Source: Methanobacteriota archaeon
Lineage (GTDB): Archaea > Thermoplasmatota > Poseidoniia > Poseidoniales > Poseidoniaceae
Assembly: GCA_004195635.1 (NCBI GenBank)
Contig: PSPT01000002.1
Coordinates: forward strand, 26,200-90,199
DNA: 64,000 nucleotides
Direction: 5' to 3'
Shown: one piece after another, positions 2,817-64,000 of the stretch
Layout: each line of letters starts with the position of its first letter
How positions within the stretch are numbered: position 1 is the stretch's first letter
The notes under the pieces: generated by a model
What the model saw: the letters and a program-made list of their open reading frames with translations, nothing else
Database searches by the model: none
Told to the model about the DNA's origin: nothing
Position numbers and translations under genes: made by a program

Positions 2817-2946
2817 GGCTTTCAAACTGCACAAAGGGTTCTATTTGATAAATAGACAGGCTCAATGGGATGTGGCTTTAGAATAATTTCGACTTTTTTC
2901 GCACCATATTGGCGCTGCTGAAAAAAGAGTGCTGAGTGGTTGTTGT

Positions 2947-8400: not shown

Positions 8401-8539
8401 AGATACTGTTGAAGATGGAGGCGTACCAGGCTGGGCTTGGGGAGCAATCATTGGAATAGTAGTTCTAGCATTTGTAGTCGGAGCATTCATCCTTTCACGA
8501 GGTAATGAAGGCGATGATAGCAAGGAATGGGACTACTGA
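5446..8539 (+). CDS. Large cell-surface protein (signal peptide, PKD/FN3-like beta-sandwich repeats, C-terminal TM anchor) interrupted by an apparent frameshift near 5732-5802
   Basis: The frame-1 ORF 5440-5802 encodes a signal peptide plus about 100 aa. The frame-2 ORF, open from 5732 to 8539, encodes about 930 aa and ends with a TM helix and an RGNEGDD tail. The two overlap by about 70 nt. The downstream ORF has no signal peptide of its own. Confidence 0.6.
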
Positions 8540-8634: not shown

Positions 8635-9193
8635 ATTTTAAATTCTTATCCTTATTTCCTTAGAGGGCAAATGATTTCATTACATGAGTGTAGTTTAGTG
8701 GAGAATAATAGATCTGTGAATTGGATAAAGTTTCTTATTTTCCTTATCCGTTTTTAGTTATTCCACACGTGAGATATTATTTCCTCTGTTCTGGAATGAC
8801 ATCAAAATCGACTATTAGGAAACTTCCGATTTGGGTAAAAGGTGCAACGGCTATAATAGAAAATATGCGTGCCAGTTTGGAATTATTATAGGGTGATTAA
8901 ATAATATTATTGTGGCGTTGAAATAATATGGAAAAAATAACATTCTGTAATTTGCTAACTAGTTGAGGCCAATGTCATGCGGTATGCCGTTTTTCTGTGC
9001 GGTAGCAGCATTATATAAGCACATAATAATTTTCTTACAAACATGTTGTACCAGTGGGGGTGGGTATATTCTCATCAATAAACGCCATGCTGCGTAGCCA
9101 AAGTATATCTTAATTCAAACCGAATGCACCCCAACGCCTATAAGGGGTGCAGGGCCTCGGATGCTTTGCATACAGAGCGTATGAGGTGATGAC

Positions 9194-41411: not shown

Positions 41412-41540
41412 TGCCGGGAGCGGGGCTTGAACCCGCGACCTTCGGATGTCTCAGACATCATCTTGGCTGACTTTTCAGCGCGACTCGTGCAAAATTGCTG
41501 CCCTATGAGTCCGACGCGCCACCAACTACGCCACCCCGGC
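41412..41540 (-). tRNA. tRNA with anticodon CAU (elongator Met or Ile2) containing a 56-nt intron at 37/38
   Basis: The exons are GCCGGGG-UG-GCGU-AGUUGGUG-GCGC-G-UCGGA-CUCAUA and A-UCCGA-AGGUC-GCGGG-UUCAAGC-CCCGC-UCCCGGC-A. All four stems pair. G1-C72 excludes an initiator tRNA. CCA is not encoded. Confidence 0.7.
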
Positions 41541-50000: not shown

Positions 50001-53000
50001 ACTTCGGCCATGTATCTATTCTCGATTCAACCATAAAATCAGCAAATGCAGATACTGCCTTTGAGGATTCAGATTTACAAATCGGGTCAACTTCATCAGG
50101 TGATGAAATGCGAGCATTTGTTGTCCTAGATACAAGTTCATTACCCCTAAACCCCAATGCTAGAGTTCACTCAGCAAGTGTTGGGTTATATGTCGAATCT
50201 GTAAGTTTATTCGCTGGTGTTCCTATGACTACCTTTACCATTTCTGCTCACCCACTTTTGGGTAGCGGATATACACCTCTTGGCACTACATGGAATGATG
50301 TTACTGCAAATGCGCCTTGGGGTGCACCCGGGCTGCAATCTGGAGTAGATTACGGGCTTGCAAGTGGAACTGTGACATTTAATGTCGCCAATGGATTTAC
50401 CGGTTGGGTTTGGCTCGATCTCTCACAATCAGGGCTAGATTTAACATCAAGTCATCCATATGTGTTAATTGGTTCTGGACAAGCATACTTGAATATCGCA
50501 CATTCTCAAGATACAAATGAAGATCATCGACCAGTGATGTTGATGAATTATACTACTGTTGATAGTATTGCTATTAGCCCAGGGCTTGGTACAACTACTG
50601 ATGCCGATACGGCTGTGCAATTTAGTTTCAGTATGTATGATGCAAATAGCCAAGCAATTGCAGGTAATGTAGAATGGGATGCTGAAAATGGTAGTATCTC
50701 AAGTGCGGGAATGTATATTCCACACACTGTCGGCATTTGGGACGTTTCCGCTTGTTTCGGACTACGGTGTGAGATAATACAAATCCAAGTCACACCTGGT
50801 GTAGCAGTATCTCATGTTGTCACTCCGCTTTCGGGTACAATTACTGCCGATGAAAGTTTTGATATTCAAGTAAAGGTACTTGACCAATATTCAAATCAAG
50901 TTATTGGAGAAATAATAAATTGGCAAGCTACCAACGGCTCCTTTGTAACCATCAGCCCTCCATCGGGATGGAATGAAGCAGCCACTTTCATGCCATGGGC
51001 AAAAGGTCCACAGATAGTATCGGTTGAATGGAATGGAGTATCTATCAATGTCAACATTCAAGTTCATCCAGGAATTGCAGATTATTTTGAGATTGGCGCA
51101 TGTGCCGATGGTGACTTGATTGTACCTGCTGGAACAACCTGTCAGTTAGCATGGCAACTTTATGATGCCAATGACAACATGCTACCTGATAGTGCAGCAG
51201 GAAATGTTTCTTGGACAGTTCAAGCTGCTGGTGGAAATATTAGCAATGGCGCGTTTGAAGCAGACCACATTGGTGAGTGGATAATAAATCTAACAAGTGC
51301 AAGCGGGGTAAATGCCACTACAAATATCACCGTCGTTTACGGAGTTATTGAATCACTTGAACTTTCGGCGAGCGATTTATACATTACTGCAGACGAAGTA
51401 ATTTATCTAAACACAACTAGAATTGATATCAAAGGCAATAGATTACAAATCGACTTGCCTGCAGAAAATTGGACTATTGCTAGCGGATGGATCACTCCAG
51501 GTACGGGAGGTGCCCCTGCTGTTTGGGAACCAGAGGATGTTGGAAGCAAAGTGATTACTGCGTCTTATGATGGTTTACAATCTTCAGTAAATATTGGTAT
51601 TTCACATGGAATTCTTATTGATTTAGAAGTAGATATTACAACTTTGAATAACATCACTGCTGATGAATCTTCAGTTTTGAAAGCATTTGGAGTTGACTCC
51701 AAGGCAAACCGCTGGCCGGTAACCGTGCTATGGCGAGTTATCCAAGATCCACAAAACAACCAAGGTTGGTTATCTGATACAAACTGGTCTCAAACTACCT
51801 TTGACCCGACTTCGGTAGGGTCCTTTGATGTTAGTGCAGTCTATACAGATGATGCATCAAACTTTTACAATGTTGATACAAATTATGTCATCACTCATGG
51901 AATCCTTGCGGGTGTTTCCTTTGATTCCCCTGCAACTAATGACCCTCATTGGTCAGATGATATGTTTGAAATAACTGCAGACGAGGATGTTCAAATCGCA
52001 GTTTCTCTTGCTGATTCTAATGGTAATCAAATTGATAATGATATTCTCAATTGGACTGTCAATGGTGTTGAAGTGACTTCTGAAATGGTTCTCTCAAATT
52101 TCCTTTGGGATGGAGAGCAGACGATAGGTGAATATGTGATAAAGGCTACAAATGGCTCATTCTACGACATTATTACTGTTAATGTAAGTCACGGAAGGGC
52201 ACTTGTAGTAACTCATGCACAGAGTGCAAATTCTGTTGAGGCAGGTAACTCCCTTACCGTACAAATGACCGGGACAGATGCTGCGGGTAACCAATTTGCT
52301 CAAGATGTATCTTGGGCTGGTGGCGATTTGTCAAAGACCGCTGATGGTGCCTACCAATATGATGCGACAACTGCAGGCTCATACACCTTGACATTCTCAT
52401 TACCTGGTGCCCAAGGCGGAGACTGGAATTTGGAAGTATCCCCAACCTATCTTGATCATTTCGATGTTGTAATTGATAAATCAACAGTAGAACAATTAGA
52501 GAAAATCACAATGTCCATTGAAGCATATGACCGCTTTAATAATCCGTTACAGGTGCCAAGTGGTACGCAATTATCGGTACAAGCAAGTGGAAGAGGCGAA
52601 ATATCGGGCAGTGGGAATTCTTACTCTGTAACTACTTTAGAAGAAGGTGTACATAGCATGACAGTTTCAAGTAATGTAAATGGCAATGTTGTTAGTGCAA
52701 GTGCATCATACAATGTAACCGGTAATATGGCTGGGTTCTTTGCAGCAGGTGGCACCCTGTACTATGTTGGTGCAGGTTTAATTGGCTTAGTTTCACTAAT
52801 TCTATTTGTGCTTGTTATTGTTCTATTCCGAGGAAGTACTGATGACTATGATGATGAAGATTGGGAGGATGAAGAAGATGATGATGAAGTCAAAGACCAA
52901 CGTCCAATCCTTGAGCGAATTCAAAGTGTACCAAGTGAGCCAGAACCCGAACCAGAAGATAATTCTGCGGAAGAAACTGATGATGGAGTCACTGTAGATG

Positions 53001-53089
53001 AACACGGTGTTGAATGGTATGAGGACGAAACCGGTGTTTGGTGGAGCCGTGGACCTAATGATGAGGATTGGGAAGAGTTTGTTGAGTGA
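44069..53089 (+). CDS. Giant (3006 aa) surface protein: ~7 DNRLRE-like/FN3-like module pairs, then ~6 Ig-like (Big_2) domains, TM anchor and acidic cytoplasmic tail
   Basis: The N-terminus is a signal anchor. A repeated pattern D[ST]x[IL]...N.G...L[LM].FD...LP...A.[IV]..A.L.LY...W.E..[AV]TWN recurs at least 7 times. Each copy is followed by a W-containing FN3-like unit (e.g. WNWRVRG, WNYWRVRS). The C-terminal third contains VTPG...Ig-like repeats. The TM is LIGLVSLILFVLVIVLF. The protein is very rich in N-x-S/T sequons. Confidence 0.85.
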   Translation: MLMSAAPITLDSRFKTLLFIAMFLFADIAIPAFFPAEELEEINERSFAVYNYGASKDAMIDSSAANNNFGTSTTASIGPNAIIGESRMLIDFNINLSSSANISSAVLDLTCSTNATVTGTTFFVATLSQAFQENSTNWLNADNTTGWDMPGADGDADRGAWEPPHEENANGTFSLNVTTFVQSAAAANSTTLGFVISAIGAQYSCSTKETLNPSASPTLLVTWGAGTPSAKGQLTSNFVTDGNALMSSDFMLNAELDPTFSWMNMQGSQVEFQLSYEPSFKSDIDSYWYLNSNLNSTFQMSSSSGSVNIPSENAFINGSSYFYRLRAVNGDQVGDWETGYFHSPDLSVSDNGDGTATILFNSNSMGLITDAIEDTSLDESNNGGNTALGSQTAIVTGMSLPTTDQYGLLRFNANTFGMHQNATIEMAELVMTRSSYNSAAIVSLHQMDENANWTEESATFNTPNGVGTWNDGGRDLTSSAIDSLWLNQTSSEFRFDITSSYQHWLDDGVNGDLSYWTTVRGIDESHSANTNIQWHSTDYTTSSDQPLLEITYSWGSGASPYPVNQLTPIDGSGAWTMTGFNLSGNTTPSLTWDGTNSSTNSYDIIFQLSSDRDFRNIIAEVDTSSNNDFAASDGIFNLSAPHGLVTGGIYGWRMAHMGSDGHASEWTESNFFVPGINSTYLGNDLYELRFKQGNSSSFLNQPACRDSYIDSGSPTDNYGGEMEIQTSYNSFSQANILWGCDLSGHMLPNGIAVTDASLSMALSYAGSSPSVGAWENLQHNWTENEVTWNTYDGTNNWGVGGASGWERGSLLDSTTIPTSSSTGTTFEWNITQGVQSSMRGNGQVDVILTVLNTGSNPDALLYSNEASGAYLPELVIIFTPGSNSIPANPVLVSPANASWAVESGIEPAPILRPELSWSMTSNVSITGWVVELDTLSSFNGPNLQTFASWNSLGFDMQNQTFTTNQDLANGKVWNWRVRGVSSTNQLGGWSPTNNFLLPDLTTWRLDSNTSAIELHHEEAIPQLNLPSFTDTWVVDSGSYFNAAQNSSDVLKVGTLTSGARVTSLLHIPINELPSPSNAHVAAATINLYANWGASTSQHISIHPSAVAWTSSANGLTYDGVNNWSANGSLGMNDVGGMVDVHPVTHASWNQFDITEIMQEATLAGQTYIALTIMGDIGNGLVEFASTDASSNTPWLNVTWTTGNASSVAQTGSPSSPSDGTILWGNGSHAMLPAETPTLTWTHQNPSSVDDWRLFLWTNGSNEREGWLVHDTRDSLSGFDIANLSWTPAISQTSGKTQRWFVQPIINDILGPRSSNYHYYLPTQMSDEINSTDAWLSVVEGALVPDISYAHVIEDTWIYSAAQSTNYGNATNINIGQSSSGYRSHGLLEIDVSVLPVPAPYEVVSATVKMYRLSGVNSDVEISVSDLYRDFSEVNATWNEYETNQSWSQSGAIGTTDSALSTSVSTVSSTGWITWDVTQLAQAAVARGDETLRLLFQPVNGTGTHLFSSSNNILSLRPQLNMTIRTGSQWLPSESTSLLPVSGSTMWNLSASLPSGMDNIDLSWSSSLSNVSYHLQRGTDSSFINVDDIYSNDTGTWGNGDFDVTNQTYSLLAADAGIDEWNYWRVRSIQGHIIGNWSQVNLFRVPGDHGSDDGTGNLTLNLQRGTVFVNTSVVPLVPDVTIDSSFASTNTGSSSALYLGVSNSGTGESRILMEFDLNELPFPANMTPTSTVLSLYRTGISGGQGLTVAVYPCSSYSESGATWNNAPTCSTTEITRSTIGVVPPTGWLQWDITSLAQSNVANGNYTLTVMLAVVGTPGASHSFYSSDSSSTTYRPQLSFEYVDNSNGTQPPAQPTLVYPTDGDVLYDNSNWTLAPIQRPVLQWNPVANATAYVLTISNNSGQTKFRSWTNSGFSGANYTFQSDLSSGESYQWWVQAINGSIPGPASSRWSFAIGNPINNTDNSDNTYTYWLRHGAEVADFGHVSILDSTIKSANADTAFEDSDLQIGSTSSGDEMRAFVVLDTSSLPLNPNARVHSASVGLYVESVSLFAGVPMTTFTISAHPLLGSGYTPLGTTWNDVTANAPWGAPGLQSGVDYGLASGTVTFNVANGFTGWVWLDLSQSGLDLTSSHPYVLIGSGQAYLNIAHSQDTNEDHRPVMLMNYTTVDSIAISPGLGTTTDADTAVQFSFSMYDANSQAIAGNVEWDAENGSISSAGMYIPHTVGIWDVSACFGLRCEIIQIQVTPGVAVSHVVTPLSGTITADESFDIQVKVLDQYSNQVIGEIINWQATNGSFVTISPPSGWNEAATFMPWAKGPQIVSVEWNGVSINVNIQVHPGIADYFEIGACADGDLIVPAGTTCQLAWQLYDANDNMLPDSAAGNVSWTVQAAGGNISNGAFEADHIGEWIINLTSASGVNATTNITVVYGVIESLELSASDLYITADEVIYLNTTRIDIKGNRLQIDLPAENWTIASGWITPGTGGAPAVWEPEDVGSKVITASYDGLQSSVNIGISHGILIDLEVDITTLNNITADESSVLKAFGVDSKANRWPVTVLWRVIQDPQNNQGWLSDTNWSQTTFDPTSVGSFDVSAVYTDDASNFYNVDTNYVITHGILAGVSFDSPATNDPHWSDDMFEITADEDVQIAVSLADSNGNQIDNDILNWTVNGVEVTSEMVLSNFLWDGEQTIGEYVIKATNGSFYDIITVNVSHGRALVVTHAQSANSVEAGNSLTVQMTGTDAAGNQFAQDVSWAGGDLSKTADGAYQYDATTAGSYTLTFSLPGAQGGDWNLEVSPTYLDHFDVVIDKSTVEQLEKITMSIEAYDRFNNPLQVPSGTQLSVQASGRGEISGSGNSYSVTTLEEGVHSMTVSSNVNGNVVSASASYNVTGNMAGFFAAGGTLYYVGAGLIGLVSLILFVLVIVLFRGSTDDYDDEDWEDEEDDDEVKDQRPILERIQSVPSEPEPEPEDNSAEETDDGVTVDEHGVEWYEDETGVWWSRGPNDEDWEEFVE

Positions 53090-53175: not shown

Positions 53176-55914
53176 GTGTACACCTTGCAAACCCACTCAC
53201 ACCCCACTCGCAGATGCCTCTCAATGCTTTTCTGTATGCTTTTCATGCTCAGTTTTCTAACCCCTCTTGTGAGTGCAGGGCCGGTAGTTAGAGTTGAAAT
53301 TGATCAACAACCTCCGATAAGCATTGATGCTGATAGCCAGTATCAATTTTCAGCCTCATTATTTGATTCATCTAATACTTCAGTTTCAGACACAATCACT
53401 TGGATGGCTAGTAATGGCAGTATTGATTCTGCAGGATTATTCACTGCCCATTCCACAGGTAATGTGACAATTCAAGCTTTTTCTAATGGCTATAATGATT
53501 CTGTGATAGTAAATGTTACAGCGGGTTGGCCTTCTCACCTTTCGCTTTCTGCTAATTTAACTGAAGTTCAACTCGGACATGGAATACAATTATTGCCTTC
53601 ATTAACCGATGCCCATGGAAATAGTGCATATGGGCATCAATTATCTTGGACAATTTCGCAAGGAATCGTGAATTCCTCAAATGTGTGGTTTCCAGACCAA
53701 GTTGGTAATGGAAGCATTGAAGTGCATTGGGGGGAACTCAGTAGTTCAGTGAATCTTTCAGCGACAACTGGGCCTGCTTTTTCAATGTCACTTCCAACTG
53801 GCCTCAGTGTGAGTTCAGGCAGTAGTATTGAAATTATTCCAATCGTCACTGATACTTGGGGCAATGTTCTTTCAAACCAAAGCATAGGTTCTCTTCAATG
53901 GACCTCGGAAAGTGGGAGTATCAACAATGGTGTATTCACTGCTAGTTCAACTGGCTATTGGCTCATTACCTGTGCGACAAGCAATGGGATAAGTGCTAAG
54001 GCGAACATCACCGTCACCTCTGCAACAATTGATAATGTTGAATTGGTTGTTGAAAACCGGACCTTTAGAGCAGACGAAGCGGTGGAATTGGTTGTAAAAA
54101 CTACAGATGTATATGGTAATGTTGAATATTCCACGCCTCTTCTTTCATCTTGGTCATTTGCTTCAGGTTCTCTTCGTTTTGGTCAAAACACAACTGAATG
54201 GTTACCCGGAAAAGTCGGAAATTGGACACTTTCACTGAACTATGCAGGATTCAATGTTAGTATTGTTATTGATGTAGTTCATGGCCATGCCGAGGAGATC
54301 TTATTGGTCACAGAAGGCAATAGAGTTAGTGCAGATGATGAAATAACCTTGTATATGCAAGCGAGTGATATTCGAAATAATCGCTGGGTAATAGTTGGGA
54401 CTTGGGAAATGAGTGATTCAAGTCAAGATGAAAACTTAGAATCATTTGGAACTTGGGCAAAATATGATGCCAATCTTGCTGGTGATTGGCAAATTGAGGG
54501 CGATTGGTTTGATGAGGCACAACAACAATTCTTCAGCGCCGAAATTACACTTTCGGTAATCCCTGGACGCCTAGCAAATATTATTCTTCAAGGAGGGGGT
54601 ACGACAATTTCAACGGATGAAATACTCGAACTCAACCCCATTTCAACTGATGAAGATGGAAATGTGATTGGCAATATTCTAATGAATTGGACGGTAGATG
54701 ATGTCGATGAAACAACATCCTTCCGCCTACATCGCGGAATATATTATCCTGAAGGTACCGGGTTGCATGAAATTAGGGCATTTGCTGATGGAGCCTTTAC
54801 TAGCATCATGGTCGAAGTAATTCCTGGGCGTGCAAGAAATATATTACTCGACATACCAGCAAATGTTCTTATTTCCTCGGGAAGTAATGGAGCGATTGCT
54901 TTTACAGCGACAGGTTTGGACCTTTCAAATAATTCATTTTTGATAAATGAAATGTCGTGGGTTATTCCTGAAGGTGCGGCAGAAATTTCTGCTGGTGCTT
55001 CTAATGGGGAATGGATATTGGAAGGTAAAAAATCAGGTGTTTGGGATATAGAATTAGTTTCTGAAGATGCTTCTCATTTCTTTGAATTAACCATACGTGC
55101 AGGCGATGCTGCCGTTATTGAATTAGTTATGTCTTCCGAGAATTTAAAGCAGGGAGATGAGTTATTGATTGATGTGCGAATATATGATTCGCATGGGAAT
55201 GATGTTGAAGTTTCTCCGGCAGATTTAGTTGTGAGCAGCACTGCTGGGAAAATCACTCATGTAAGAGATGGTAGTTGGTTAATCTCTCTAGATGAAGGAG
55301 GTACTGACCATGCAGTCACTATTCGCTTAGGCAATCTCACAGAGCAGCGTTTCTTTGATGTTCAAGAGGCATTACTTAGCGGCGTATTTGGTTCCTCAAA
55401 TGCGACAGTATTAGCGGGAATATCAGTACTCTCTGTGATTCTTGTAATGCTAATATTCCTGATGCGAAGGTCGAAAGGAGATAGCGGGGAATGGGTTAGT
55501 GAAAAAGTGGAACCACATATACCGCCAATAACGTCGCCCACCCCCGAGTACGAAGCGGAATCTACGGCCCCCACCTCCTCACCCGAGACTCCAACTATCA
55601 TCCTGACTCCTCCTGACACTGCAGAAGCCACACCATATGTTAATGCTGAAAGCGTCCCTGCTTACCCTCTCACTCAAGTCAACTCTGACCCATACACTGA
55701 GGCAGCAAATACCGGTGCGACTGAACAAATTTATTCAGAACCTGAAATAATGTCTGCCATCGCAATTGCTGCTGCTGAACAAGCCAAAGCAACAGGTGTA
55801 ATGGTTGCTGCTGAAGGTACAGTGCAAGGTGAATCGGGTTGGTATTATGATTCAAGTGGTGAATTAACAAATTGGCGCGTTGAAACAAATGGGGCATGGA
55901 CAAGGATACAATAG
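53176..55914 (+). CDS. Surface protein with ~9 Ig-like (Big_2-type) repeats, C-terminal TM and Tyr/Pro-containing cytoplasmic tail
   Basis: The signal peptide is MLFCMLFMLSFLTPLVSAG; the real start is probably at 53224/53236. Repeated ...VTAG / VIPG / VVHG-initiated ~90-aa units follow. The TM is AGISVLSVILVMLIFLM, and about 140 aa of tail follow. Confidence 0.8.
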   Translation: MYTLQTHSHPTRRCLSMLFCMLFMLSFLTPLVSAGPVVRVEIDQQPPISIDADSQYQFSASLFDSSNTSVSDTITWMASNGSIDSAGLFTAHSTGNVTIQAFSNGYNDSVIVNVTAGWPSHLSLSANLTEVQLGHGIQLLPSLTDAHGNSAYGHQLSWTISQGIVNSSNVWFPDQVGNGSIEVHWGELSSSVNLSATTGPAFSMSLPTGLSVSSGSSIEIIPIVTDTWGNVLSNQSIGSLQWTSESGSINNGVFTASSTGYWLITCATSNGISAKANITVTSATIDNVELVVENRTFRADEAVELVVKTTDVYGNVEYSTPLLSSWSFASGSLRFGQNTTEWLPGKVGNWTLSLNYAGFNVSIVIDVVHGHAEEILLVTEGNRVSADDEITLYMQASDIRNNRWVIVGTWEMSDSSQDENLESFGTWAKYDANLAGDWQIEGDWFDEAQQQFFSAEITLSVIPGRLANIILQGGGTTISTDEILELNPISTDEDGNVIGNILMNWTVDDVDETTSFRLHRGIYYPEGTGLHEIRAFADGAFTSIMVEVIPGRARNILLDIPANVLISSGSNGAIAFTATGLDLSNNSFLINEMSWVIPEGAAEISAGASNGEWILEGKKSGVWDIELVSEDASHFFELTIRAGDAAVIELVMSSENLKQGDELLIDVRIYDSHGNDVEVSPADLVVSSTAGKITHVRDGSWLISLDEGGTDHAVTIRLGNLTEQRFFDVQEALLSGVFGSSNATVLAGISVLSVILVMLIFLMRRSKGDSGEWVSEKVEPHIPPITSPTPEYEAESTAPTSSPETPTIILTPPDTAEATPYVNAESVPAYPLTQVNSDPYTEAANTGATEQIYSEPEIMSAIAIAAAEQAKATGVMVAAEGTVQGESGWYYDSSGELTNWRVETNGAWTRIQ

Positions 55915-55922
55915 GTGATTGA

Positions 55923-58433
55923 ATGAGAAAATTTGTGGCATTGATATTGATTGCTGTCTTGTTTAGCAGTGGTCTCGTCAATTCACTTCCTTTGTCGCAA
56001 GAGATGAATAAACAATTCACAATCCCAGGTTGTACAAATAATCCAAGTGTAGATTCAATTGAAATTAATTACCCCGGTTCAGGAAGCATTCCGGCTGACC
56101 AAGTTTTACAATTCAACGCTACAGTTCGTGATAATCTTTCTCAAGTATTGTCAACTTATCCTACTTGGGGAGCAAATAATGGCAGTATTGACCAAAATGG
56201 GCGTTTTGTTCCTTGGGCTACGGGTCCTGTTGAAATTTGGGCTTGTGCGGGCGATATCAATGAATCTGTGACAATCAATGTCCTTCAAGGAACAACAGTA
56301 GGCGCTGAACTATTGCTTCATTCCGAAAATGTGACTGCAGATGATTTAGTTGAATTGATGCCAATGCGAAAGGATGATCGGGGTAATTTGGCTCCCGTCC
56401 TCGTACCAACTGATAATTGGACTATCCCTGTTGGAAGCAGTTTGTCCGGGGCTTCTCCATTATTCTGGGTGCCTGGGGAAAAAGGTGAACAGGATATTTC
56501 TGTAAATATTATGGGATACGATGTTAGTCGAACTTTGAATGTGAGTATTGGGGTTGCACATCATTTACAAATTCAAACATCTTCAACCTCATATAATGCC
56601 GATCAAGAAATAGTGGTGCTACTTTCTTTGGTTGATCAAAAGGGCAATTATTGGGGAGTCTCTGGGCAATGGAATAGCGATTCTGAATTGCCACTGTCTA
56701 ATGATACTGGAGTTGAAGTATTTGCTTATCCTAGTGAAGTCGGTATTTGGCAAGTGGCTGCTACATATTCAGGGAATGAAACTGGCGGTGAGACTTGGTT
56801 TACATCAGTGAATCTTAGTATCAGTGCTGGAAGTCTTACTGCGACTGAAATCTCGGGTTTTTTAGTCGATCGAAGTGGAGTAGGCGTAGAGATAGGTTTC
56901 TTGGAAGGGATTGTGCAGATGACAACTGATGATCGATTTGTAATGTCTCCAGTATTACTTGATGCAGATGGCAACCCAATCGCAGTCTCTTCAGTGTTGT
57001 GGAGTTTGAGCGCTGATTACATAGAAGGAACTGAATTGTCAACTAACTTAGAATATTCCTTCGCTCCTGAATTAGTTGGAAACCACATTCTAACACTTAC
57101 TCCAGAAAGTGGAATCCCCGCTAGAATCACATTGGAAGTTCTTCATGGTGCTGCGGTTGAAGTTATTGTAAGTAATCGAGGCAATCCCGATTTGGTTGTG
57201 CCAATTGGAAGAAATTTGAGTATTGATGTAAAAGGAATTGATGGAAAAAACAATCACTTTCCAATGGATGTTGGTTGGATAATTCCTGCCCACGCAGGTA
57301 ATATCTCAAATGGCTCATTAGGAGTCGGAAATTATGAATATCAACCCGGCAATCAAACACCCTTGAAAGTACATACCTTTGTTGTACGAACTGCTCTTGG
57401 GCCACATGATGTTCCGGTAAGAGTAATCTTGGGGCAGCTCGATCATTTGACTTTACACATTGATTCAAATTTGCAACAAGGAGAGAAGGTACTTATTGGC
57501 ATCATTGGCCATGATGAGAATGGCAATCCTGTACCAATAGCAAATGGTGATGTTATTCTTTCAAGTTCAGCGGGAACAACAACTTATCGTAATGGTGAGC
57601 ATTATTTAAAATTAGAAAAGCAAGGGATTCAACATCAAGTGACTGCTGAATATGCAGGAATTGCTCCCTCTGTTGAGTTTATTGATATTGAAGCAACTTT
57701 ACTTGCTGGTGCATTTGGTTCTTCTGAAGTAGTCATTATGGGGGCGATTGTGATTGCCTCAATCATTTTGCTTTTGGTAGCAACCTTGACCTACAAAAAG
57801 TCTGGTGAGAGGGTCAAATATGATGATGAAATTATAGCTGAAAGAGAGGCTAAAAAAGAGGAATTGCGAAATTCATTGACACGTTCGGGAAGCGAAATAA
57901 ATGCATCTAATGAAGAAATGGCTGACAATTCAGCCCCTGGAAATGACAAGGAATACAATTCACTGCCGCCCGTTACTTCACCTCCCCTCGTAGCACAAGG
58001 ATTGGCAGTTCAACCAGCATCAATGCCTCCACCTTTGCCGCCGTTCGCACCTATGCCTTTCGCAGCACCACCTCTGCCCGTCTCCACCACTCTTACCCCT
58101 CCGCTCAATGAATTTTCTACACTCTCACAGCCAAATGCCTTCGCCGCTCCTCCCCCTATTCTGCCAGTTGCGCCTTTGCTTCTAGCACCAGTCATTGACA
58201 ACTCAGTTCAACAGGCAGCCTCATCTCCTTACATTCAGACAAGCATTAATGCCCAAGATGCTCTTGCTCTGTTGGGCTCAAGTAGCGATGAGGAGGTTCA
58301 AATCGAAGCAGAAACTTCGACCTTTATTGCTCTTTTATCCGATCCACCTTTACCGGCAGAAGGACTACCTCAAGGTTGGACAATGGCTCAATGGTCTCAT
58401 TATGGTGAAGAATGGTTGAAAAACCAATCTTAG
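55923..58433 (+). CDS. Surface protein paralog with Ig-like (Big_2-type) repeats, C-terminal TM and proline-rich cytoplasmic tail
   Basis: It lies 9 nt after the previous gene. The signal peptide is ILIAVLFSSGLVNS. The Ig-like repeats are paralogous to the upstream gene. The TM is IMGAIVIASIILLLVATL. The tail contains PPPLPPFAPMPFAAPPLP. Confidence 0.8.
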   Translation: MRKFVALILIAVLFSSGLVNSLPLSQEMNKQFTIPGCTNNPSVDSIEINYPGSGSIPADQVLQFNATVRDNLSQVLSTYPTWGANNGSIDQNGRFVPWATGPVEIWACAGDINESVTINVLQGTTVGAELLLHSENVTADDLVELMPMRKDDRGNLAPVLVPTDNWTIPVGSSLSGASPLFWVPGEKGEQDISVNIMGYDVSRTLNVSIGVAHHLQIQTSSTSYNADQEIVVLLSLVDQKGNYWGVSGQWNSDSELPLSNDTGVEVFAYPSEVGIWQVAATYSGNETGGETWFTSVNLSISAGSLTATEISGFLVDRSGVGVEIGFLEGIVQMTTDDRFVMSPVLLDADGNPIAVSSVLWSLSADYIEGTELSTNLEYSFAPELVGNHILTLTPESGIPARITLEVLHGAAVEVIVSNRGNPDLVVPIGRNLSIDVKGIDGKNNHFPMDVGWIIPAHAGNISNGSLGVGNYEYQPGNQTPLKVHTFVVRTALGPHDVPVRVILGQLDHLTLHIDSNLQQGEKVLIGIIGHDENGNPVPIANGDVILSSSAGTTTYRNGEHYLKLEKQGIQHQVTAEYAGIAPSVEFIDIEATLLAGAFGSSEVVIMGAIVIASIILLLVATLTYKKSGERVKYDDEIIAEREAKKEELRNSLTRSGSEINASNEEMADNSAPGNDKEYNSLPPVTSPPLVAQGLAVQPASMPPPLPPFAPMPFAAPPLPVSTTLTPPLNEFSTLSQPNAFAAPPPILPVAPLLLAPVIDNSVQQAASSPYIQTSINAQDALALLGSSSDEEVQIEAETSTFIALLSDPPLPAEGLPQGWTMAQWSHYGEEWLKNQS

Positions 58434-58483
58434 TAAAAAAATATTGTTGCTATTACAATAATTCAAGTGCGATTATTTTCATC

Positions 58484-58515
58484 AAAAAACTGAGTTATGC
58501 TTGAATTGACTCAGT
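58484..58515 (-). terminator. Hairpin plus T6 intrinsic-terminator-like element for panB; the hairpin begins at the stop codon
   Basis: The minus-strand reading is ACUGAGU-N13-ACUCAGU-UUUUUU. The 7-bp perfect stem includes the panB TGA stop. Confidence 0.4.
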
Positions 58516-59326
58516 ATGATTCTTCTTCCTTTGGGAAATCCTTGCTTCTGACATCCTCGCAGTACTGCGTAACTGCCTGACTTATTTGATCTTCAAGAGA
58601 AAGGTAACGTCGTAAGAAACGAGGGCTAAAATCAGTAGTTATTCCAAGCATGTCGTGTAATACCAATACTTGTCCGTCACAATCTGGTCCAGCGCCAATT
58701 CCAATTGTTGGAATGGAAATAGATTCACTTACTCTCTTTGCAAGAGGTGCGGGTATTTTTTCCAAAACAATAGCGAAACATCCGGCTTCTTCCAAGATCT
58801 TTGCATCACTAATCAATTTTTCAGCCTCCTCATCCTCCTTTGCCCTTACAGAATAAGTGCCAAATTTATAGATCGACTGAGGAGTTAAACCGAGGTGGCC
58901 CATTACGGGAATTCCTGCAGTAAGGATTCGCTTTATTGAATCCACAATTTCCACTCCTCCTTCCAATTTTACTGAATGTCCAGCAGCCTCTTTCATTATT
59001 CGTATTGCCGAATCAAGGGCGATTTTTGAATTGCCTTGGTATGTTCCAAATGGCATATCTACAACAATTAGCGCTCTCTCAACTGCTCTTTGAACGCATT
59101 GTGCATGGTAAATCATTTGGTCAAGAGTTATTGGAACTGTTGTGTCGTGTCCAGCCATAACGTTTGCTGCTGAATCACCAACGAGAATTACGTCAACACC
59201 ACCCCTGTCAACTAGTTTGGCTAATGAATAATCATATGCAGTAAGCATTGTGATTTTTTCGCCAGCCTCTTTCATTTCAAGAAGGGTATTAGTAGTGATT
59301 TTTCGGGCCTTTCCGTGAACTGACAC
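58511..59326 (-). CDS. panB: 3-methyl-2-oxobutanoate hydroxymethyltransferase (ketopantoate hydroxymethyltransferase)
   Basis: [36 protein letters not shown]...VVDMPFGTY...VKLEGG are PanB signatures. Confidence 0.85.
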
Positions 59327-59420
59327 ACTCTTCCCTCATGTAAGGGGTGGAGTGCATAAGGTTTCAAACTCTCGCATATGGAAAATACTGCTGGAAAGTA
59401 AAGAAAGGAGGAAATCAGTT

Positions 59421-61112
59421 TTAAGTTTCCGAATGATGTTCTACTGACTTGGTAAATTCATCAATATCCACTACTCCATCACCATTTTCGTCGGCAGCAT
59501 GGAAATATTCTCTAAGTGCATCATGACCTTCTGTGCAACATCTCAAGGCCTCCATTGCAGCAATAAATTCATGCAAATTAAGGTGATTATTGCCTTCCCT
59601 ATCTGCTGCGTGGAATGCGGTTATTCTACGGCGGCGTTCTGCTTCATCAGCGTTAATAAACATCAGTTTGAATGTTTTCCATGGTGTGATTTTTGGTTGA
59701 TAGTGCTTTTTTCCATAGCCAAAGAAAATAACTCCTCCAATCATTATTGCTGTTCCTCCACCAATAACTGCCTCCTTGCCCATGATAAAGAGCAAACACA
59801 GTCCTGCAAGAACGCCAAATAATTGAGTTGCTGGTCTAAATGGTGCATCATATTCAGGTACATACCAAGCATGAGAGGGAGTTGCTTTTCTAAGTATCAA
59901 TACACATAAGCACATTAATACATAAACCATTATTTGGAAGCCAGATGCGTATTCTGCAACAGCATGAACATCAATGGTGACTAGGGCAATAGCCATCGCT
60001 CCCGCAGTTACAATAATCGCCCAATGTGGCGTTTCAAATTTCCCATGTACATCTTCTAGGAATTCTGGTAACAAGTTATCTCGTGACATTGCGTAAAGAT
60101 ATCTTGAGGCAGCAAGGATTCCAGCAAGTGCCATTGAGGTCATTGTGAGAACTGCAATTGCTGCTGCAATAAGTCCAATTGTTGAACCACCAATTATCTC
60201 TGCAAAAACTCGAACAGGATCCTCAATTGCATGACCTGAAGAATCGAAGAAAGATTCATGCGGAATAACAGCAACCATTGTGGCCACCATTATCGCATAT
60301 AATATGGCGCCAATTGCCAAAGAAGTCATTATACCTCCGGGGAGATTACGACCTGGATTTTTCACTTCTTCACCAATTGCTGCTACTTTAGCAACACCTG
60401 CATATGAGACTAGAACAAATGCCGCAGCCTCACCCATTAGCATCCAATCATCTGGCCCATGCAAATCAACTGAGGCGCGTGAATAATCAGCATCTCCGTT
60501 AATAATTGCCCAGAATGTAAGCACAATGAGCATAAGGATTGATAATGTAACTATTGGTGTTTGAACAACCTTTATTTTTTTCATACCCAAAATATTTACT
60601 AGTGCGATTAATATTAACATGCTGAGAGCGCTAGCCAAAGCAGAAAAGTCACTACCCCACCATTCTTGTAATATCATCAAATATGCCGAAAAACCAATCA
60701 ATGCAAATGCAGCCTTCAGCAAAAATGAAGCCCAAAGACCCAAACCGGTCATTGTCCCAAACAATGGTCCAAAAGTGCGTTCTACGAAAACATATGACCC
60801 TCCCGAAGTTGGCATTGCAGAGGCAAGCTCACTTTGAGATAATGCTCCCGGAATAACTACCATTGCAGCCAAAATATATGCTAGCCAAACTCCTCCTCCT
60901 ACCATAGCATAGGCAAGGGAAGGTAATACGAATAATCCACTTCCAATCATTGCAGATAATGAAATAATAATGACTGAAAACAAACCTAATTTCCTTTCAA
61001 GTGTATCAGAAACCATCTCAAGCGGCTGGAGTACGATGCCCACAAGGTCCTTGGGATTGGTGGGCGTCATATCTGTTCCAAGCAAAACGGATAGTTGAAC
61101 ATTGCTTCTCAA
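59421..61112 (-). CDS. APC-family amino-acid permease with C-terminal cytoplasmic EF-hand pair
   Basis: It has 12 TM helices with the APC N-terminal GSGLFVLP motif. The C-terminal 80 aa contain DENGDGVVDIDE, a canonical 12-residue EF-hand loop, preceded by a degenerate loop DREGNNHLNLHE. Confidence 0.75.
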   Translation of the reverse strand: MRSNVQLSVLLGTDMTPTNPKDLVGIVLQPLEMVSDTLERKLGLFSVIIISLSAMIGSGLFVLPSLAYAMVGGGVWLAYILAAMVVIPGALSQSELASAMPTSGGSYVFVERTFGPLFGTMTGLGLWASFLLKAAFALIGFSAYLMILQEWWGSDFSALASALSMLILIALVNILGMKKIKVVQTPIVTLSILMLIVLTFWAIINGDADYSRASVDLHGPDDWMLMGEAAAFVLVSYAGVAKVAAIGEEVKNPGRNLPGGIMTSLAIGAILYAIMVATMVAVIPHESFFDSSGHAIEDPVRVFAEIIGGSTIGLIAAAIAVLTMTSMALAGILAASRYLYAMSRDNLLPEFLEDVHGKFETPHWAIIVTAGAMAIALVTIDVHAVAEYASGFQIMVYVLMCLCVLILRKATPSHAWYVPEYDAPFRPATQLFGVLAGLCLLFIMGKEAVIGGGTAIMIGGVIFFGYGKKHYQPKITPWKTFKLMFINADEAERRRRITAFHAADREGNNHLNLHEFIAAMEALRCCTEGHDALREYFHAADENGDGVVDIDEFTKSVEHHSET

Positions 61113-61151
61113 ATTAATTCATTAGCCGTGTTAGGGAGTGAACATTAGATG

Positions 61152-62537
61152 TCAAAAAGATGCGATGACTTTCAATTCTACTGCAATAGGAGTAGGGAGG
61201 GCATTAATTGCAAGAGTGGTTCTTGTAGGTTTAATATCTACAAAGTATTCTGAATACACTTGATTAAAAGTCGCAAAGTCGCGGTCCATGTCAATTAGGA
61301 ATACCGTGATGTCTTGGACTTTCTCAAGTGAAGAACCCGCACTTTCAAGAACTCGCTTGACATTTTCTATACACATATGAGTTTGTGCGGCAATATCATA
61401 ATCAAGTGATATTCCGTTTTCATCACGGCAAGGCCCACCTGGAATTTCGTCTGTATCTGGGGTGCGTGAACCTACACCAGAGAGGTATAGGAGATCTCCC
61501 ACTTTTCGTGCATGAGGATATGCGCCAACAGGTTTAGGTGCGCTTTGAGAATTAATAGCAGCAGTATCTTTGTTTGAATCATCTTCATTGGAGGTAGCAG
61601 TGGTTGTAGTAACCCCTCTATCCTCAATTCCTTCAAGCACACTTCGGTCACCAGAAAACACCTCTGCATCGTCCTCATCGTATTCTTTATCTCCTGCACT
61701 ATTTTCTGTTGGAGTAAGTAGTACAACTGCGCCGCCGGCTCCATGTAGAGCCTCATAAGCGAGAACTTCTCCTTTGAGATTGTTGGTTTGTCCATTGACT
61801 CCTGAGAGAAACCACATCGGTTTGAAAGAAACTACTTTTTGCACTCTTATTTGCGAGTGAATCTGTCGTGATAATTGGGCAATATCTTCCAATCTTCCCT
61901 TTTCCAGCAATTCCAATATTTTTCGATTCCATTCGTCGTCTTTAAGCGAATGAATCCGATCTTCGTTTGGTTCAATAAATTCTGTAAACATACGATTGGA
62001 AAGGCTCATCGCACAAATGACTGCTACTTTTTTTCCACTCTCTTTAACTGCATCAAGGCAGGCTTTAGAAAGCACGAGTGTTTCAGAGCGGTTTGCATAA
62101 ATGTTACTTGAAACTATGGCTACTTTGAAGCGGTTATCAGGGTTGAGCAATGAAACGGAAACCACTGAACCTACATCAACTGGAAATCCATGGTAATTTA
62201 CAGTTCTACTTGAGAGTCCACGGCGTTCATTTGCATTATGCCACGCATGGGTAAGATTTGTATCGACCTGAAAATCATAGGGCAACGAACCGAGGTCATG
62301 GAAATCTGCATCAACAAAAGTCCACTTTGGGTTAGGATCTGCAAGAAGTTGGTGTCCAATTATATTGGGCCAAGTAGTTGAATAAATGATAATAGTTTCA
62401 GCGCCACTATCAATAATGCGCTGCCTCAAAGTGGTAAATGCTTGACGAAGGAGCCCCCAGCCTTCATTTTTTTCTGGAACAAGAAGTGGATGTGGGTGAA
62501 CGGGGACAATTGCAGAGAGTACGATTTCGCCAGTCAT
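61152..62537 (-). CDS. LigB-type (class III) extradiol dioxygenase subunit fused via an acidic linker to a RidA/YjgF-family domain
   Basis: The N-terminal ~300 aa read MTGEIVLSAIVPVHPHPLL...MSLSNRMF, with LigB-family His ligand positions. The C-terminal ~125 aa read PKPVGAYPHARKVGDLLYLSGVG...TTLAINALP.PIAVELKVIA, a RidA fold. The start ATG at 62535-62537 is 1 nt after the upstream gene's stop. Confidence 0.65.
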   Translation of the reverse strand: MTGEIVLSAIVPVHPHPLLVPEKNEGWGLLRQAFTTLRQRIIDSGAETIIIYSTTWPNIIGHQLLADPNPKWTFVDADFHDLGSLPYDFQVDTNLTHAWHNANERRGLSSRTVNYHGFPVDVGSVVSVSLLNPDNRFKVAIVSSNIYANRSETLVLSKACLDAVKESGKKVAVICAMSLSNRMFTEFIEPNEDRIHSLKDDEWNRKILELLEKGRLEDIAQLSRQIHSQIRVQKVVSFKPMWFLSGVNGQTNNLKGEVLAYEALHGAGGAVVLLTPTENSAGDKEYDEDDAEVFSGDRSVLEGIEDRGVTTTTATSNEDDSNKDTAAINSQSAPKPVGAYPHARKVGDLLYLSGVGSRTPDTDEIPGGPCRDENGISLDYDIAAQTHMCIENVKRVLESAGSSLEKVQDITVFLIDMDRDFATFNQVYSEYFVDIKPTRTTLAINALPTPIAVELKVIASF

Positions 62538-62538
62538 T

Positions 62539-63426
62539 TTAGTCACCTCGGAGTGCAACTTCAGCGTTTGCAGCAGCCTCTGCTGGCCATTCAACAACAG
62601 CATTACCTGTGCCAATAATGGTTCCATAGCCATGCACTATTGCCGGATAGGTCGGGAAATCAAGGGCAGATAATATCCAAGAAAATCCCCCGCCGTCCGA
62701 TTCAGAAACCGCTTGTTCAGTGAATTCTGGCATAATGTCAAAAATCTCTTTTGTCTTACCTTGCTTCATCATTTCAATCAACTTCATATCCCAAAGGTAA
62801 AGGTGATGTGAGGTGATATGCTCGGCACTCATATCTTCTGGAATTTCAGGTTCAGTAATGAAATGGCGATGGGAAAGAGAATTTGAAGCGAGCAATAGTG
62901 CACGTTTTCCTGATTTTTCAATTGCTCTAGAAGTTGCTCGCCCAAGTTGAGCGGCCATTTCTTGCATTACTTCAACCGAATAGTATGCATTTGCACGATT
63001 ACTACTGATACAAACAACAGGTTTGTCCCACTGTGGGCGTGTAAGGTGACATGAAACGATTGTACCATAATCAACTCTAAAATCTGGATTTTCCATCATC
63101 TTCACTACCATTCCATCGGCCTGAGCTTCATCATGAATCATCCGTGATAATTCTACATCAATATCAATATCATAGTCGAAACGGAAGAGGTTAGGGAATA
63201 TTGGGTCAACTGATTTTGACTTGAAATTTGGTAGCCCGAGGAAGTGTGTACCAACATAGGTTTGCCAATGCGGCGATAAAATCACAATAACATCATAATC
63301 GGCTTCATCCAAGTTTGCTCGCATTCTTTCATAAGCCCAGCGAAGTGATTCCCAACCACACTCGGACTTTGGCTCATTTTGAACCGGATTGTCTGCATAT
63401 ACCAAATGTGGGGGGTGGGGTGCCAA
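62539..63426 (-). CDS. LigB-type (class III) extradiol dioxygenase subunit
   Basis: VIVILSPHW...SNSLSHRHF are paralogous to the downstream gene's motifs. The two form a tandem pair like alpha/beta subunits. Confidence 0.6.
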   Translation of the reverse strand: MAPHPPHLVYADNPVQNEPKSECGWESLRWAYERMRANLDEADYDVIVILSPHWQTYVGTHFLGLPNFKSKSVDPIFPNLFRFDYDIDIDVELSRMIHDEAQADGMVVKMMENPDFRVDYGTIVSCHLTRPQWDKPVVCISSNRANAYYSVEVMQEMAAQLGRATSRAIEKSGKRALLLASNSLSHRHFITEPEIPEDMSAEHITSHHLYLWDMKLIEMMKQGKTKEIFDIMPEFTEQAVSESDGGGFSWILSALDFPTYPAIVHGYGTIIGTGNAVVEWPAEAAANAEVALRGD

Positions 63427-63566
63427 TGCTCCTGCGACTATTTTCCCCTTGCTAATACTAACTCCCCCGATTAATGCACAGGGGGTTTAGTCTTTAGTTT
63501 GACTATTGGAGAATAATTGTCAAATTGGTGGATAGAATAAACTAATTGAGCCAATGAGGGGGGCCC

Positions 63567-64000
63567 ATGGGCATTGAAGATGGGGCGAGCAAGGCCGAAA
63601 AGCCAATTGTTAATCCATCTGTTTCTGACAATAATAGTTTGAATATTCCAGTAGTGTCTGCGGAAGCAACTGAAGTTTCAAACAATCAATTCATGCATGT
63701 TTTTTTCCCCGCAGTTCTTGGGGCCTCTTTTGGCGCATTAGGGCAGCATTTGCTAAGCAAGGGAATAATAGATGTCAGCAATTCGTTTTCACCATTTTTG
63801 CAAACCGTCAGTGAATTATTAGTTATTGTAGCAATGGCTTTGCCTGCAATATTATTAATCGGTTTATTTCATTGTAGAAAGGGCGATAGTTATTTGGATT
63901 TTAGCGGCGGAGGGATAATAATATTCCTTCCTGTCATCATTTTTTGTGTGATGTTTCCCGCTTGTTTATTGCCAATTGTGATAGTGGTCTGGTTTTACAT
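63567..64000 (+). CDS. Hypothetical membrane protein, partial; the gene runs off the window end
   Basis: The ATG is preceded by GAGGGGGG. The ORF is open to the window end. Hydrophobic segments FPAVLGASFGALG and LLVIVAMALPAILLIGLF are present. Confidence 0.35.
   Translation, partial: MGIEDGASKAEKPIVNPSVSDNNSLNIPVVSAEATEVSNNQFMHVFFPAVLGASFGALGQHLLSKGIIDVSNSFSPFLQTVSELLVIVAMALPAILLIGLFHCRKGDSYLDFSGGGIIIFLPVIIFCVMFPACLLPIVIVVWFY

Follow-up and report, generated by a model that had tools for sequence, protein, structure and literature searches.

The meta-cleavage route for 2-aminophenol has been shown only in nitrobenzene- and chlorobenzene-degrading bacteria (PMC10470539), and bacterial amn clusters often hold two RidA genes, amnJ and a deaminase gene (PMC3790839). 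In the Comamonas dioxygenase (CtAPD), the iron ligands are His13, His62 and Glu251, with Tyr129 and His195 in the second sphere (PMC5291488), and the deaminase AmnE carries an extended Lp2 loop (PMC6742747). The ring-cleavage product, 2-aminomuconate semialdehyde, cyclises spontaneously to picolinate unless it is quickly oxidised (PMC10470539; bioRxiv 10.64898/2026.06.05.730449); the pathway therefore needs its early enzymes in one place, and the actinobacterial ARO microcompartment holds dioxygenase, aldehyde dehydrogenase and deaminase together so that the unstable semialdehyde is not lost to picolinate (PMC10470539). Here we analyzed a 64,000-nucleotide stretch of contig PSPT01000002.1 from a Poseidoniaceae archaeon (hereafter the window) and two adjacent genes near its end, an amnB-like gene and a gene fusing an AmnA-like domain to a RidA domain. 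Judging from sequence matches and conserved residues, these genes probably encode a two-subunit Fe(II) extradiol dioxygenase of the 2-aminophenol 1,6-dioxygenase type with a tethered 2-aminomuconate deaminase.

Both genes lie on the minus strand of 61152..63426, where the listing of the window contains two open reading frames (ORFs). The first, 62539..63426, has 295 aa when counted from a TTG codon and matches Pfam LigB at 4e-23. The second was listed mechanically as 61152..62633, its longest version opening at 62633; its homologues, however, all begin at the position of an ATG at 62537, 1 nt past the stop codon of the first ORF (TAA, 62541..62539). Read from this ATG, the product has 461 aa and contains a LigB domain at residues 21-268 (2e-13) and a Ribonuc_L-PSP/RidA domain (PF01042) at residues 331-459. 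An earlier note on this DNA, made from the sequence alone, had described two LigB genes whose stop and start codons are 1 nt apart, the second joined through a D/E/T-rich linker to RidA. The codon positions bear out the former, and the Pfam domains with residues 276-326 between them bear out the latter. The same note took the genes for an alpha/beta ring-cleavage dioxygenase pair; the pair stands, and the gene order is corrected to beta, then alpha.

A sequence search of solved structures matched the product of the first gene to 2-aminophenol dioxygenases over 291 residues (8ihg_A, 1.2e-110; 3vsg_B, 4.4e-107; 7txy_B, 8.3e-94), with HpaD as the next dioxygenase family at only 6.4e-9 (8iq8_A). 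The protein is 52-56% identical to proteobacterial AmnB. Its counterparts of the three CtAPD iron ligands and two second-sphere residues (Table 1) are all present and are invariant in 84/84 orthologues from related loci. The LigB domain of the second gene was closest to the alpha subunits 7txy_A (1.4e-41), 3vsg_A (6e-41) and 8ihg_B (3e-35) and has lost all five residues, as true alpha subunits do: it reads V/T/V/N/Q at the catalytic positions, where CnbCa reads G/Q/T/G/D. Because the beta protein keeps and the alpha protein loses the five catalytic residues as in CnbCa, we regard the two as a genuine beta/alpha pair of the aminophenol type, and the E values of 1e-110 for AmnB and 1e-41 for AmnA exclude chance similarity. 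Both LigB genes match AmnB/AmnA far better than any other LigB member, MEMO1 included. A MEMO-type or non-catalytic reading of the LigB genes is ruled out by the score on the MEMO1 model NF001987 (14.7 bits against a cut-off of 295, E=0.014) and by the five catalytic residues kept in AmnB. The predicted function of the AmnB/AmnA pair would be the O2-dependent 1,6-cleavage of 2-aminophenol.

The RidA domain found its best structural match in AmnE of Pseudomonas sp. AP-3 (6izh, 4e-24). As the alignment with AmnE is nearly gapless, whereas generic RidA proteins require a gap of 12-13 residues, the domain shares the extended Lp2 loop of AmnE; the motifs PH..R.GD..F/Y.SG and TRTT are also common to both. 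Arg439 of the fusion corresponds to Arg105 of the E. coli RidA paralogue TdcF and to Arg117 of AmnE, which have a role in binding the substrate carboxylate, and it is invariant in the two sets of fusions that we aligned (86/86 and 122/122). Since amn clusters often hold two RidA genes, both types were taken as references, namely, the deaminase and AmnJ types from pCNB1, Burkholderia cenocepacia and Novosphingobium humi. With the amn-cluster deaminases of Burkholderia and Novosphingobium the domain shares 41-42% identity, and with AmnJ of pCNB1 it shares 26%. In a neighbor-joining tree (a simple distance tree without support values), all fusion-borne RidA domains were sister to AmnE and the deaminases of Burkholderia and Novosphingobium. 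The conserved Arg is thus present, and loop insertion and tree place the domain with 2-aminomuconate deaminases and not with generic RidA or AmnJ. Deaminases of the AmnE clade are specialised: an Aspergillus flavus deaminase of the same type did not act on 2-iminopropanoate, and generic human RIDA did not speed up the decay of 2-aminomuconate (bioRxiv 10.64898/2026.06.05.730449).

The alpha subunit occurs in the fused form in all 120 listed homologues, and we did not meet the stand-alone AmnA form of ∼270 residues among them. An AlphaFold2 model of the fusion (mean predicted local distance difference test score [pLDDT], 69) consists of two folded domains and a disordered spacer, with pLDDT below 50 at residues 301-341 and intermediate values at residues 277-300, which include a short helix at 287-290. 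Over 86 fusions the linker measures 16-79 aa (median, 56), with E, D and G as its commonest residues. At its start, archaeal linkers carry the consensus GDKEYDEDDVEYYSGDRxVL, a relaxed form of which was found in 105/120 archaeal homologues versus 0/121 bacterial fusions. The bacterial linkers are short or carry another acidic motif of SEEGSQAELVEELTDFE-type at the same place (Oligoflexus-type). The archaeal motif, modelled with intermediate confidence, may be a docking element, a suggestion that we regard as speculative.

The gene expected between ring cleavage and deamination was found beyond the window's end. Two JGI contigs encode a fusion protein identical to that of the window, and one of them (L005) is 99.94% identical to it over an 8.8-kb overlap. 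The order on L005 is an aldehyde dehydrogenase gene (Aldedh, cut by the contig end), PAP2, LON-substrate-binding, a small membrane protein gene on the opposite strand, amnB, the fusion gene, an APC permease gene with EF-hands, and panB, so that Aldedh is placed some 3.3 kb upstream of amnB. Among solved structures, this Aldedh is closest to 2-aminomuconate 6-semialdehyde dehydrogenases (4u3w, 1.4e-134; AmnC 7bzv, 1.3e-127), ahead of general betaine-aldehyde dehydrogenases at about 1e-110, and the AmnC-like protein is 44-46% identical to Burkholderia AmnC. Together, these enzymes suggest the following sequence. AmnB and AmnA would open the o-aminophenol ring to 2-aminomuconate 6-semialdehyde, the AmnC-like NAD-dependent dehydrogenase would oxidise the semialdehyde to 2-aminomuconate, and the tethered RidA domain would hydrolyse this enamine to 2-oxohex-3-enedioate (4-oxalocrotonate) and ammonium. 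The fusion would hold the deaminase at fixed stoichiometry near the dioxygenase, and labile nitrogen-bearing intermediates would therefore be processed and not lost. We infer the order of these reactions and the benefit of tethering. The aminophenol-pathway reading proposed in the earlier note is thus supported by the AmnB/AmnA matches, the catalytic residues, the type of RidA domain and the AmnC-like neighbor.

The same note had considered a ring-cleavage module unexpected in a small archaeal genome. The module is no oddity of one genome and is kept across the Poseidoniales (Marine Group II). Relatives of the fusion occur in at least 562 stretches of genomes in a set with one genome per species, which excludes the window's own genome and in which the top match was 70-71% identical. 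The statements on hosts and synteny below cover the best 80 of these stretches. All 80 look like Poseidoniales, from records of Poseidoniales or of unclassified euryarchaeal metagenome-assembled genomes (MAGs), including the first Marine Group II chromosome (CM001443.1). The closest homologues are named Candidatus Poseidoniales or Poseidoniaceae archaeon, and 120/120 listed have both domains. Within 10 kb of the fusion in these species-level loci, we found AmnB in 79/80, PanB in 71/80, an APC permease 3' of the fusion in 70/80, the AmnC-like Aldedh in 64/80 and a PF06089 "asparaginase II" protein in 61/80; missing neighbors mostly coincide with contig ends. Three loci filed as Rhodobiaceae, Verrucomicrobiales and Yoonia MAGs (L025, L065 and L080) encode fusion proteins that are 61-65% identical, and they are probably mis-binned Poseidoniales DNA, because their gene order is the archaeal one.

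The architecture is also found in bacteria. Further full-length LigB+RidA clusters were present among protein representatives at 50% identity, and a second homology search (query P0124) listed 120 fusion proteins, of which the few named by organism were bacterial. The carriers include the cultured Oligoflexus tunisiensis and Bdellovibrionales MAGs; the taxonomy of the bacterial-type loci was taken from source names, and a tRNA scan of those loci found none. In O. tunisiensis (L094) a tight operon runs from a short-chain dehydrogenase (SDR) gene through those for a luciferase-like protein of 405 residues, the PF06089 protein, Aldedh, AmnB and AmnA::RidA to a PF04199 cyclase gene. L088, from a second bacterial-type lineage, shows the same series from SDR to the fusion gene, with several overlapping starts and stops, and in L090 and the contig of P0369 the cyclase gene directly follows the fusion gene on its 3' side. 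Beside the archaeal genes, counterparts 45-48% identical to the luciferase-like protein and the SDR of Oligoflexus were found in 67 and 58 loci, respectively. The luciferase-like protein (L094, 5407..6624; L001, 3819..5048) has 405-409 residues, faint Pfam matches (9e-9 and 1e-3) and 45-47% identity between Oligoflexus and Poseidoniales; it always lies beside the PF06089 and AmnC genes, and the 409-residue form had no sequence match in the PDB. The PF06089 gene is directly upstream of the AmnC-like gene, close-set or overlapping, in archaea and bacteria alike (L001, 5045..6173; L007, 750..1943; L088, 6717..7628; L094, 6621..7676), and its product is only distantly related to a Rhizobium class-3 asparaginase (1e-17). 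The gene pair thus makes up the 3' portion of a module that has at least six genes and is common to bacteria and Poseidoniales, which argues for horizontal transfer of the module; the pair was apparently acquired via transfer between bacteria and archaea. Other fusions were seen as well. P0125 joins Aldedh to three RidA domains, and fusions among P0125, P0189, P0208 and P0223 combine a branched-chain-type ABC permease domain with an AmnA-like LigB domain, to which a BD-FAE alpha/beta hydrolase is added in Rhodospirillaceae.

The points that weigh against a dioxygenase with a tethered 2-aminomuconate deaminase concern the RidA domain, the dehydrogenase, the lower pathway, the source of the substrate and the start of amnB. 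The RidA domain shares 42-43% identity with generic archaeal RidA, similar to the 40-42% for deaminases, and it reaches 97.3 bits on the generic model TIGR00004, whose cut-off is 106.25; a model specific to the deaminases is absent from NCBIfam. Because the two identities are about equal, the deaminase assignment rests on the shared insertion, the motifs and the tree. The same similarity to generic RidA, together with the ability of aminophenol dioxygenases to turn over catechol (PMC10470539), would suit a dioxygenase acting on a catechol or a non-aromatic diol-like metabolite, with RidA as an incidental housekeeping imine deaminase. We consider this very unlikely, since the fusion persists in archaea and in several lineages of bacteria, AmnB immediately precedes it in 79/80 archaeal loci and in all four of the bacterial neighborhoods inspected, the RidA domain has the deaminase-type insertion, and a catechol route needs a tautomerase, not a deaminase (PMC10470539). 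The earlier note's fallback, a non-aromatic catechol-like substrate, accordingly found no support.

With regard to the dehydrogenase, the best NCBIfam model for Aldedh is TIGR03216, 2-hydroxymuconic semialdehyde dehydrogenase, at 574 bits, which is below the equivalog cut-off of 693. This model would fit a different order of steps, in which the RidA domain deaminates 2-aminomuconate semialdehyde directly to 2-hydroxymuconate semialdehyde and Aldedh acts as a 2-hydroxymuconate semialdehyde dehydrogenase. Such a direct hand-over predicts RidA fused to the dioxygenase and not to the dehydrogenase, as is the case here; moreover, the semialdehyde is the more unstable intermediate (PMC10470539) and, by chemical reasoning, has the same alpha-enamine-carboxylate head group as 2-aminomuconate. 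However, the characterised members of the RidA domain's clade act on 2-aminomuconate, and the P0125 fusion ties the deaminase to the dehydrogenase step. Moreover, no RidA protein is known to act on the semialdehyde. Direct deamination is thus an improbable alternative, and oxidation before deamination is preferred.

The lower pathway is a further point. A Pfam scan of 20 further ORFs found no meta-cleavage aldehyde dehydrogenase, hydratase, decarboxylase or aldolase gene in the 64-kb window, and a search by tblastn with Burkholderia genes, complemented by Pfam, detected no homologue of 4-oxalocrotonate decarboxylase, hydratase, aldolase or acetaldehyde dehydrogenase in the window or within 10 kb of the fusion in ∼90 loci. 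Hence, of the pathway genes to which the earlier note had pointed, the semialdehyde dehydrogenase gene is there (on L005 and in 64/80 loci) and the hydratase gene is absent from the window and the fusion loci. PanB was tried as a pathway aldolase and excluded, as it passes the PanB equivalog model (343 versus 207.55 bits). The SDR, luciferase-like and PF06089 proteins might replace the missing lower pathway.

As to the substrate, free 2-aminophenol has no established natural source in the sea. The APC permease, which adjoins the fusion gene on its 3' side and has 2A0306 as its nearest NCBIfam subfamily, is a candidate importer of the substrate or a precursor, by association only; an APC permease with an EF-hand pair is not known to have been described in archaea. 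The arylformamidase-like genes in bacteria and this amino-acid permease in archaea hint at a natural, possibly tryptophan-derived aminophenol. The substrate could then be a natural substituted o-aminophenol, for example 3-hydroxyanthranilate or 3-hydroxykynurenine, imported as an amino acid, with AmnBA in place of the cupin-type 3-hydroxyanthranilate dioxygenase. Such a non-canonical side route of tryptophan/kynurenine breakdown would refine the 2-aminophenol 1,6-dioxygenase assignment and does not exclude it. It draws on the bacterial PF04199 cyclase, whose coding sequence abuts that of the fusion and whose score on the arylformamidase (kynurenine formamidase) model TIGR03035 is 205.6 bits, with the cut-off at 223, and on the permease as the conserved 3' neighbor in archaea. 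AmnC-type and deaminase-type enzymes serve the kynurenine pathway too, and 1,6-cleavage of aminophenol is, by chemical reasoning, the same cut as 3,4-cleavage of 3-hydroxyanthranilate. On the other hand, tryptophan dioxygenase, kynurenine monooxygenase, kynureninase and ACMS decarboxylase were seen in none of the inspected loci, and the enzymes to which AmnB is 52-56% identical use plain 2-aminophenol. Characterised AmnAB enzymes are reported not to accept 3-hydroxyanthranilate. We regard a kynurenine-type substrate as possible, at clearly less than even chance. A BD-FAE alpha/beta hydrolase encoded near the archaeal module was rejected as an analogue of kynurenine formamidase, since its match to 4e11 is marginal (E=0.005) and carboxylesterases match much better.

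The last point concerns the start of amnB. In the related genomes examined, the conserved Met of AmnB is encoded by ATG, 13 codons before the first iron ligand and at a position 10 codons upstream of TTG 63426. The codon here is ATT (63456..63454, minus strand), and ATT is also found at this position in two independent JGI contigs, L005 and L006, i.e., in three assemblies in all. TTG 63426 is the next in-frame start after ATT and is still ahead of the first iron ligand. Either ATT or the TTG 10 codons further on may serve as the start of translation; TTG would cost AmnB its first beta-strand, with the iron ligand retained and the remaining gene intact. Because the conserved start codon is ATT, the expression level of AmnB in this strain is uncertain. 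The loss of the ATG in three assemblies could also mean that the system is decaying in this strain. This appears extremely improbable, as the amnB frame is intact with every catalytic residue present, initiation at ATT may occur, the in-frame TTG precedes the first iron ligand, and the genes that follow are intact. In one gene call the AmnB start lies much further downstream (261 aa), which would delete the first iron ligand. In two ENA assemblies (L001 and L002, about 9077..10004), the AmnB N-terminus is in another frame than in L003 and L004, which are otherwise identical, probably an assembly error and not biology.

The remainder of the window consists mostly of housekeeping genes and giant surface proteins (Table 1). 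The very large ORFs together make up almost half of it and look like surface or adhesin proteins; one matches Big_9 and Cadherin_4, and at least one has an apparent signal peptide. An ORF with sugar-kinase and aldolase domains and an enolase-superfamily gene suggest sugar-acid catabolism, and one tRNA is possibly an intron-containing archaeal tRNA. The small unannotated gene on the strand opposite to that of amnB occupies the same place in L001-L005 and L007 and was detected in 5/80 loci by tblastn with the L007 protein; no Pfam family is on record for its product. A scan of 58400..64000 for sigma-70 promoters and intrinsic terminators, a method unsuited to archaea, gave counts not above those of shuffled controls.

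Table 1. Features of the aminophenol-type gene pair and of the rest of the window (positions in the window)
Feature	Position	Strand	Basis
amnB-like gene, predicted catalytic beta subunit of an o-aminophenol ring-cleaving extradiol dioxygenase	62539..63456	-	PDB matches, ligand mapping
AmnB Fe ligands H4, H53 and E242 (TTG numbering)	63415-63417; 63268-63270; 62701-62703	-	Aligned to CtAPD His13/His62/Glu251
AmnB second-sphere residues Y120 and H186 (TTG numbering)	63067-63069; 62869-62871	-	Aligned to CtAPD Tyr129/His195
AmnA-like domain, non-catalytic alpha subunit (fusion residues 1-275)	61713..62537	-	PDB 7txy_A, 3vsg_A, 8ihg_B
Inter-domain segment, acidic (fusion residues 276-326, 51 residues)	61560..61712	-	Sequence PTENSAGDKEYDEDDAEVFSGDRSVLEGIEDRGVTTTTATSNEDDSNKDTA, D/E/T-rich
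Marine Group II motif GDKEYDEDDAEVFSGDRSVL, then variable acidic/Thr-rich spacer	61635..61694	-	Alignment of 120 homologues
RidA-family domain, 2-aminomuconate deaminase (AmnD/AmnE, AMD) type (residues 327-461 + stop)	61152..61559	-	PF01042 1.6e-23
Conserved Arg439 of RidA domain	61221-61223	-	Aligned with AmnE Arg117
APC-family amino-acid permease with C-terminal EF-hand pair	59421..61112	-	AA_permease_2 1.6e-49 + EF-hand_1/_7
Small membrane protein, divergently transcribed, cut off by window end, between amnB and the module's upstream part	63567..64000	+	Translation
Very large ORFs (4546, 3006, 912, 836, 930, 950 aa)	9194..22834, 44069..53089, 53176..58433, 5747..8539, 35301..38153		
Single ORF with PfkB sugar-kinase and KDPG/KHG aldolase domains	26662..28254	-	
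Enolase-superfamily (MR_MLE) gene	1632..2834		
tRNA, 129-nt span	41412..41540	-	Rfam; no ARAGORN call

The family of each domain is already known, and automatic annotations call the fusion "2-aminomuconate deaminase" or "Rid family hydrolase." What appears to be new is the fusion of alpha subunit and deaminase, its conservation throughout the Poseidoniales and the wider shared module. A literature search for work on aminophenol, 2-aminomuconate, dioxygenases or kynurenine in Poseidoniales (Marine Group II) gave no relevant paper, and the passages searched in a survey of the Rid family mention tandem Rid fusions and no LigB+RidA fusion. More tentatively, as a reading that is less likely than not, we suggest that the module, its core joined by a transporter or an arylformamidase, serves to break down a natural amino acid or metabolite of the o-aminophenol kind by an undescribed route. 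The module would have passed between Oligoflexia-type bacteria and a Marine Group II ancestor and would be equipped with a channelling assembly. The substrate could, for example, be a kynurenine-derived compound released by plankton. Linked to a RidA domain that forms trimers or hexamers, the subunit of an alpha2beta2 enzyme could assemble into a larger enzyme complex via the conserved acidic docking motif. Such a complex would channel unstable intermediates and would correspond to the actinobacterial ARO microcompartment, but without a shell.

Marine Group II archaea are among the surface ocean's most abundant archaea; no cultured member is known, and their diet is inferred from genomes alone. 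Hundreds of Poseidoniales species keep the upper half of the pathway, with its catalytic residues intact and with a dedicated permease, and this speaks for a natural aminophenol-type compound from which the Poseidoniales regularly draw nitrogen and carbon. The module provides a concrete set of proteins to express and test, the fusion is a natural example of tethering enzymes to handle unstable enamine intermediates, and the sharing of the module by bacteria and archaea makes a clear case of inter-domain transfer.

Among described systems, AmnBA/CnbCaCb of Pseudomonas sp. AP-3 and Comamonas testosteroni CNB-1 (PDB 8ihg, 3vsg-3vsj) are alike in consisting of a beta/alpha pair of LigB-type paralogues, in the iron ligands and second-sphere residues of the beta subunit, in the lost metal site of the alpha subunit and in the beta-then-alpha gene order with near-zero spacing (amnBA/cnbCbCa). 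Here, in contrast, the host is archaeal, the alpha subunit continues into a linker and a deaminase domain, and the cluster lacks a MarR regulator, an AmnJ gene and lower-pathway genes. Of the complete amn meta-cleavage pathway (amnBACDEFGH), the cluster includes an AmnC-like gene, and no homologue of the lower pathway was found in the window and fusion loci. AmnE (AmnD/AMD; Pseudomonas sp. AP-3, 6izh) shares the RidA fold, the conserved Arg, the Lp2 loop and the motifs, but it is a free, hexamer-forming protein of 142 residues, whereas its counterpart here, about 40% identical, is the C-terminal domain of AmnA. The ARO microcompartment faces the same instability problem, and there too the main locus often lacks the lower-pathway genes (PMC10470539); its solution is encapsulation in a protein shell, whereas the system described here has a covalent fusion and no shell genes. 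The bacterial LigB+RidA fusions, such as the O. tunisiensis "Rid family hydrolase" (P0301), have the same domain architecture and operon core and are 40-57% identical to the archaeal proteins. They differ in their short or SEEGSQAELVEELTDFE-type linkers and in operons that end in a PF04199 arylformamidase-like gene and have no EF-hand permease.

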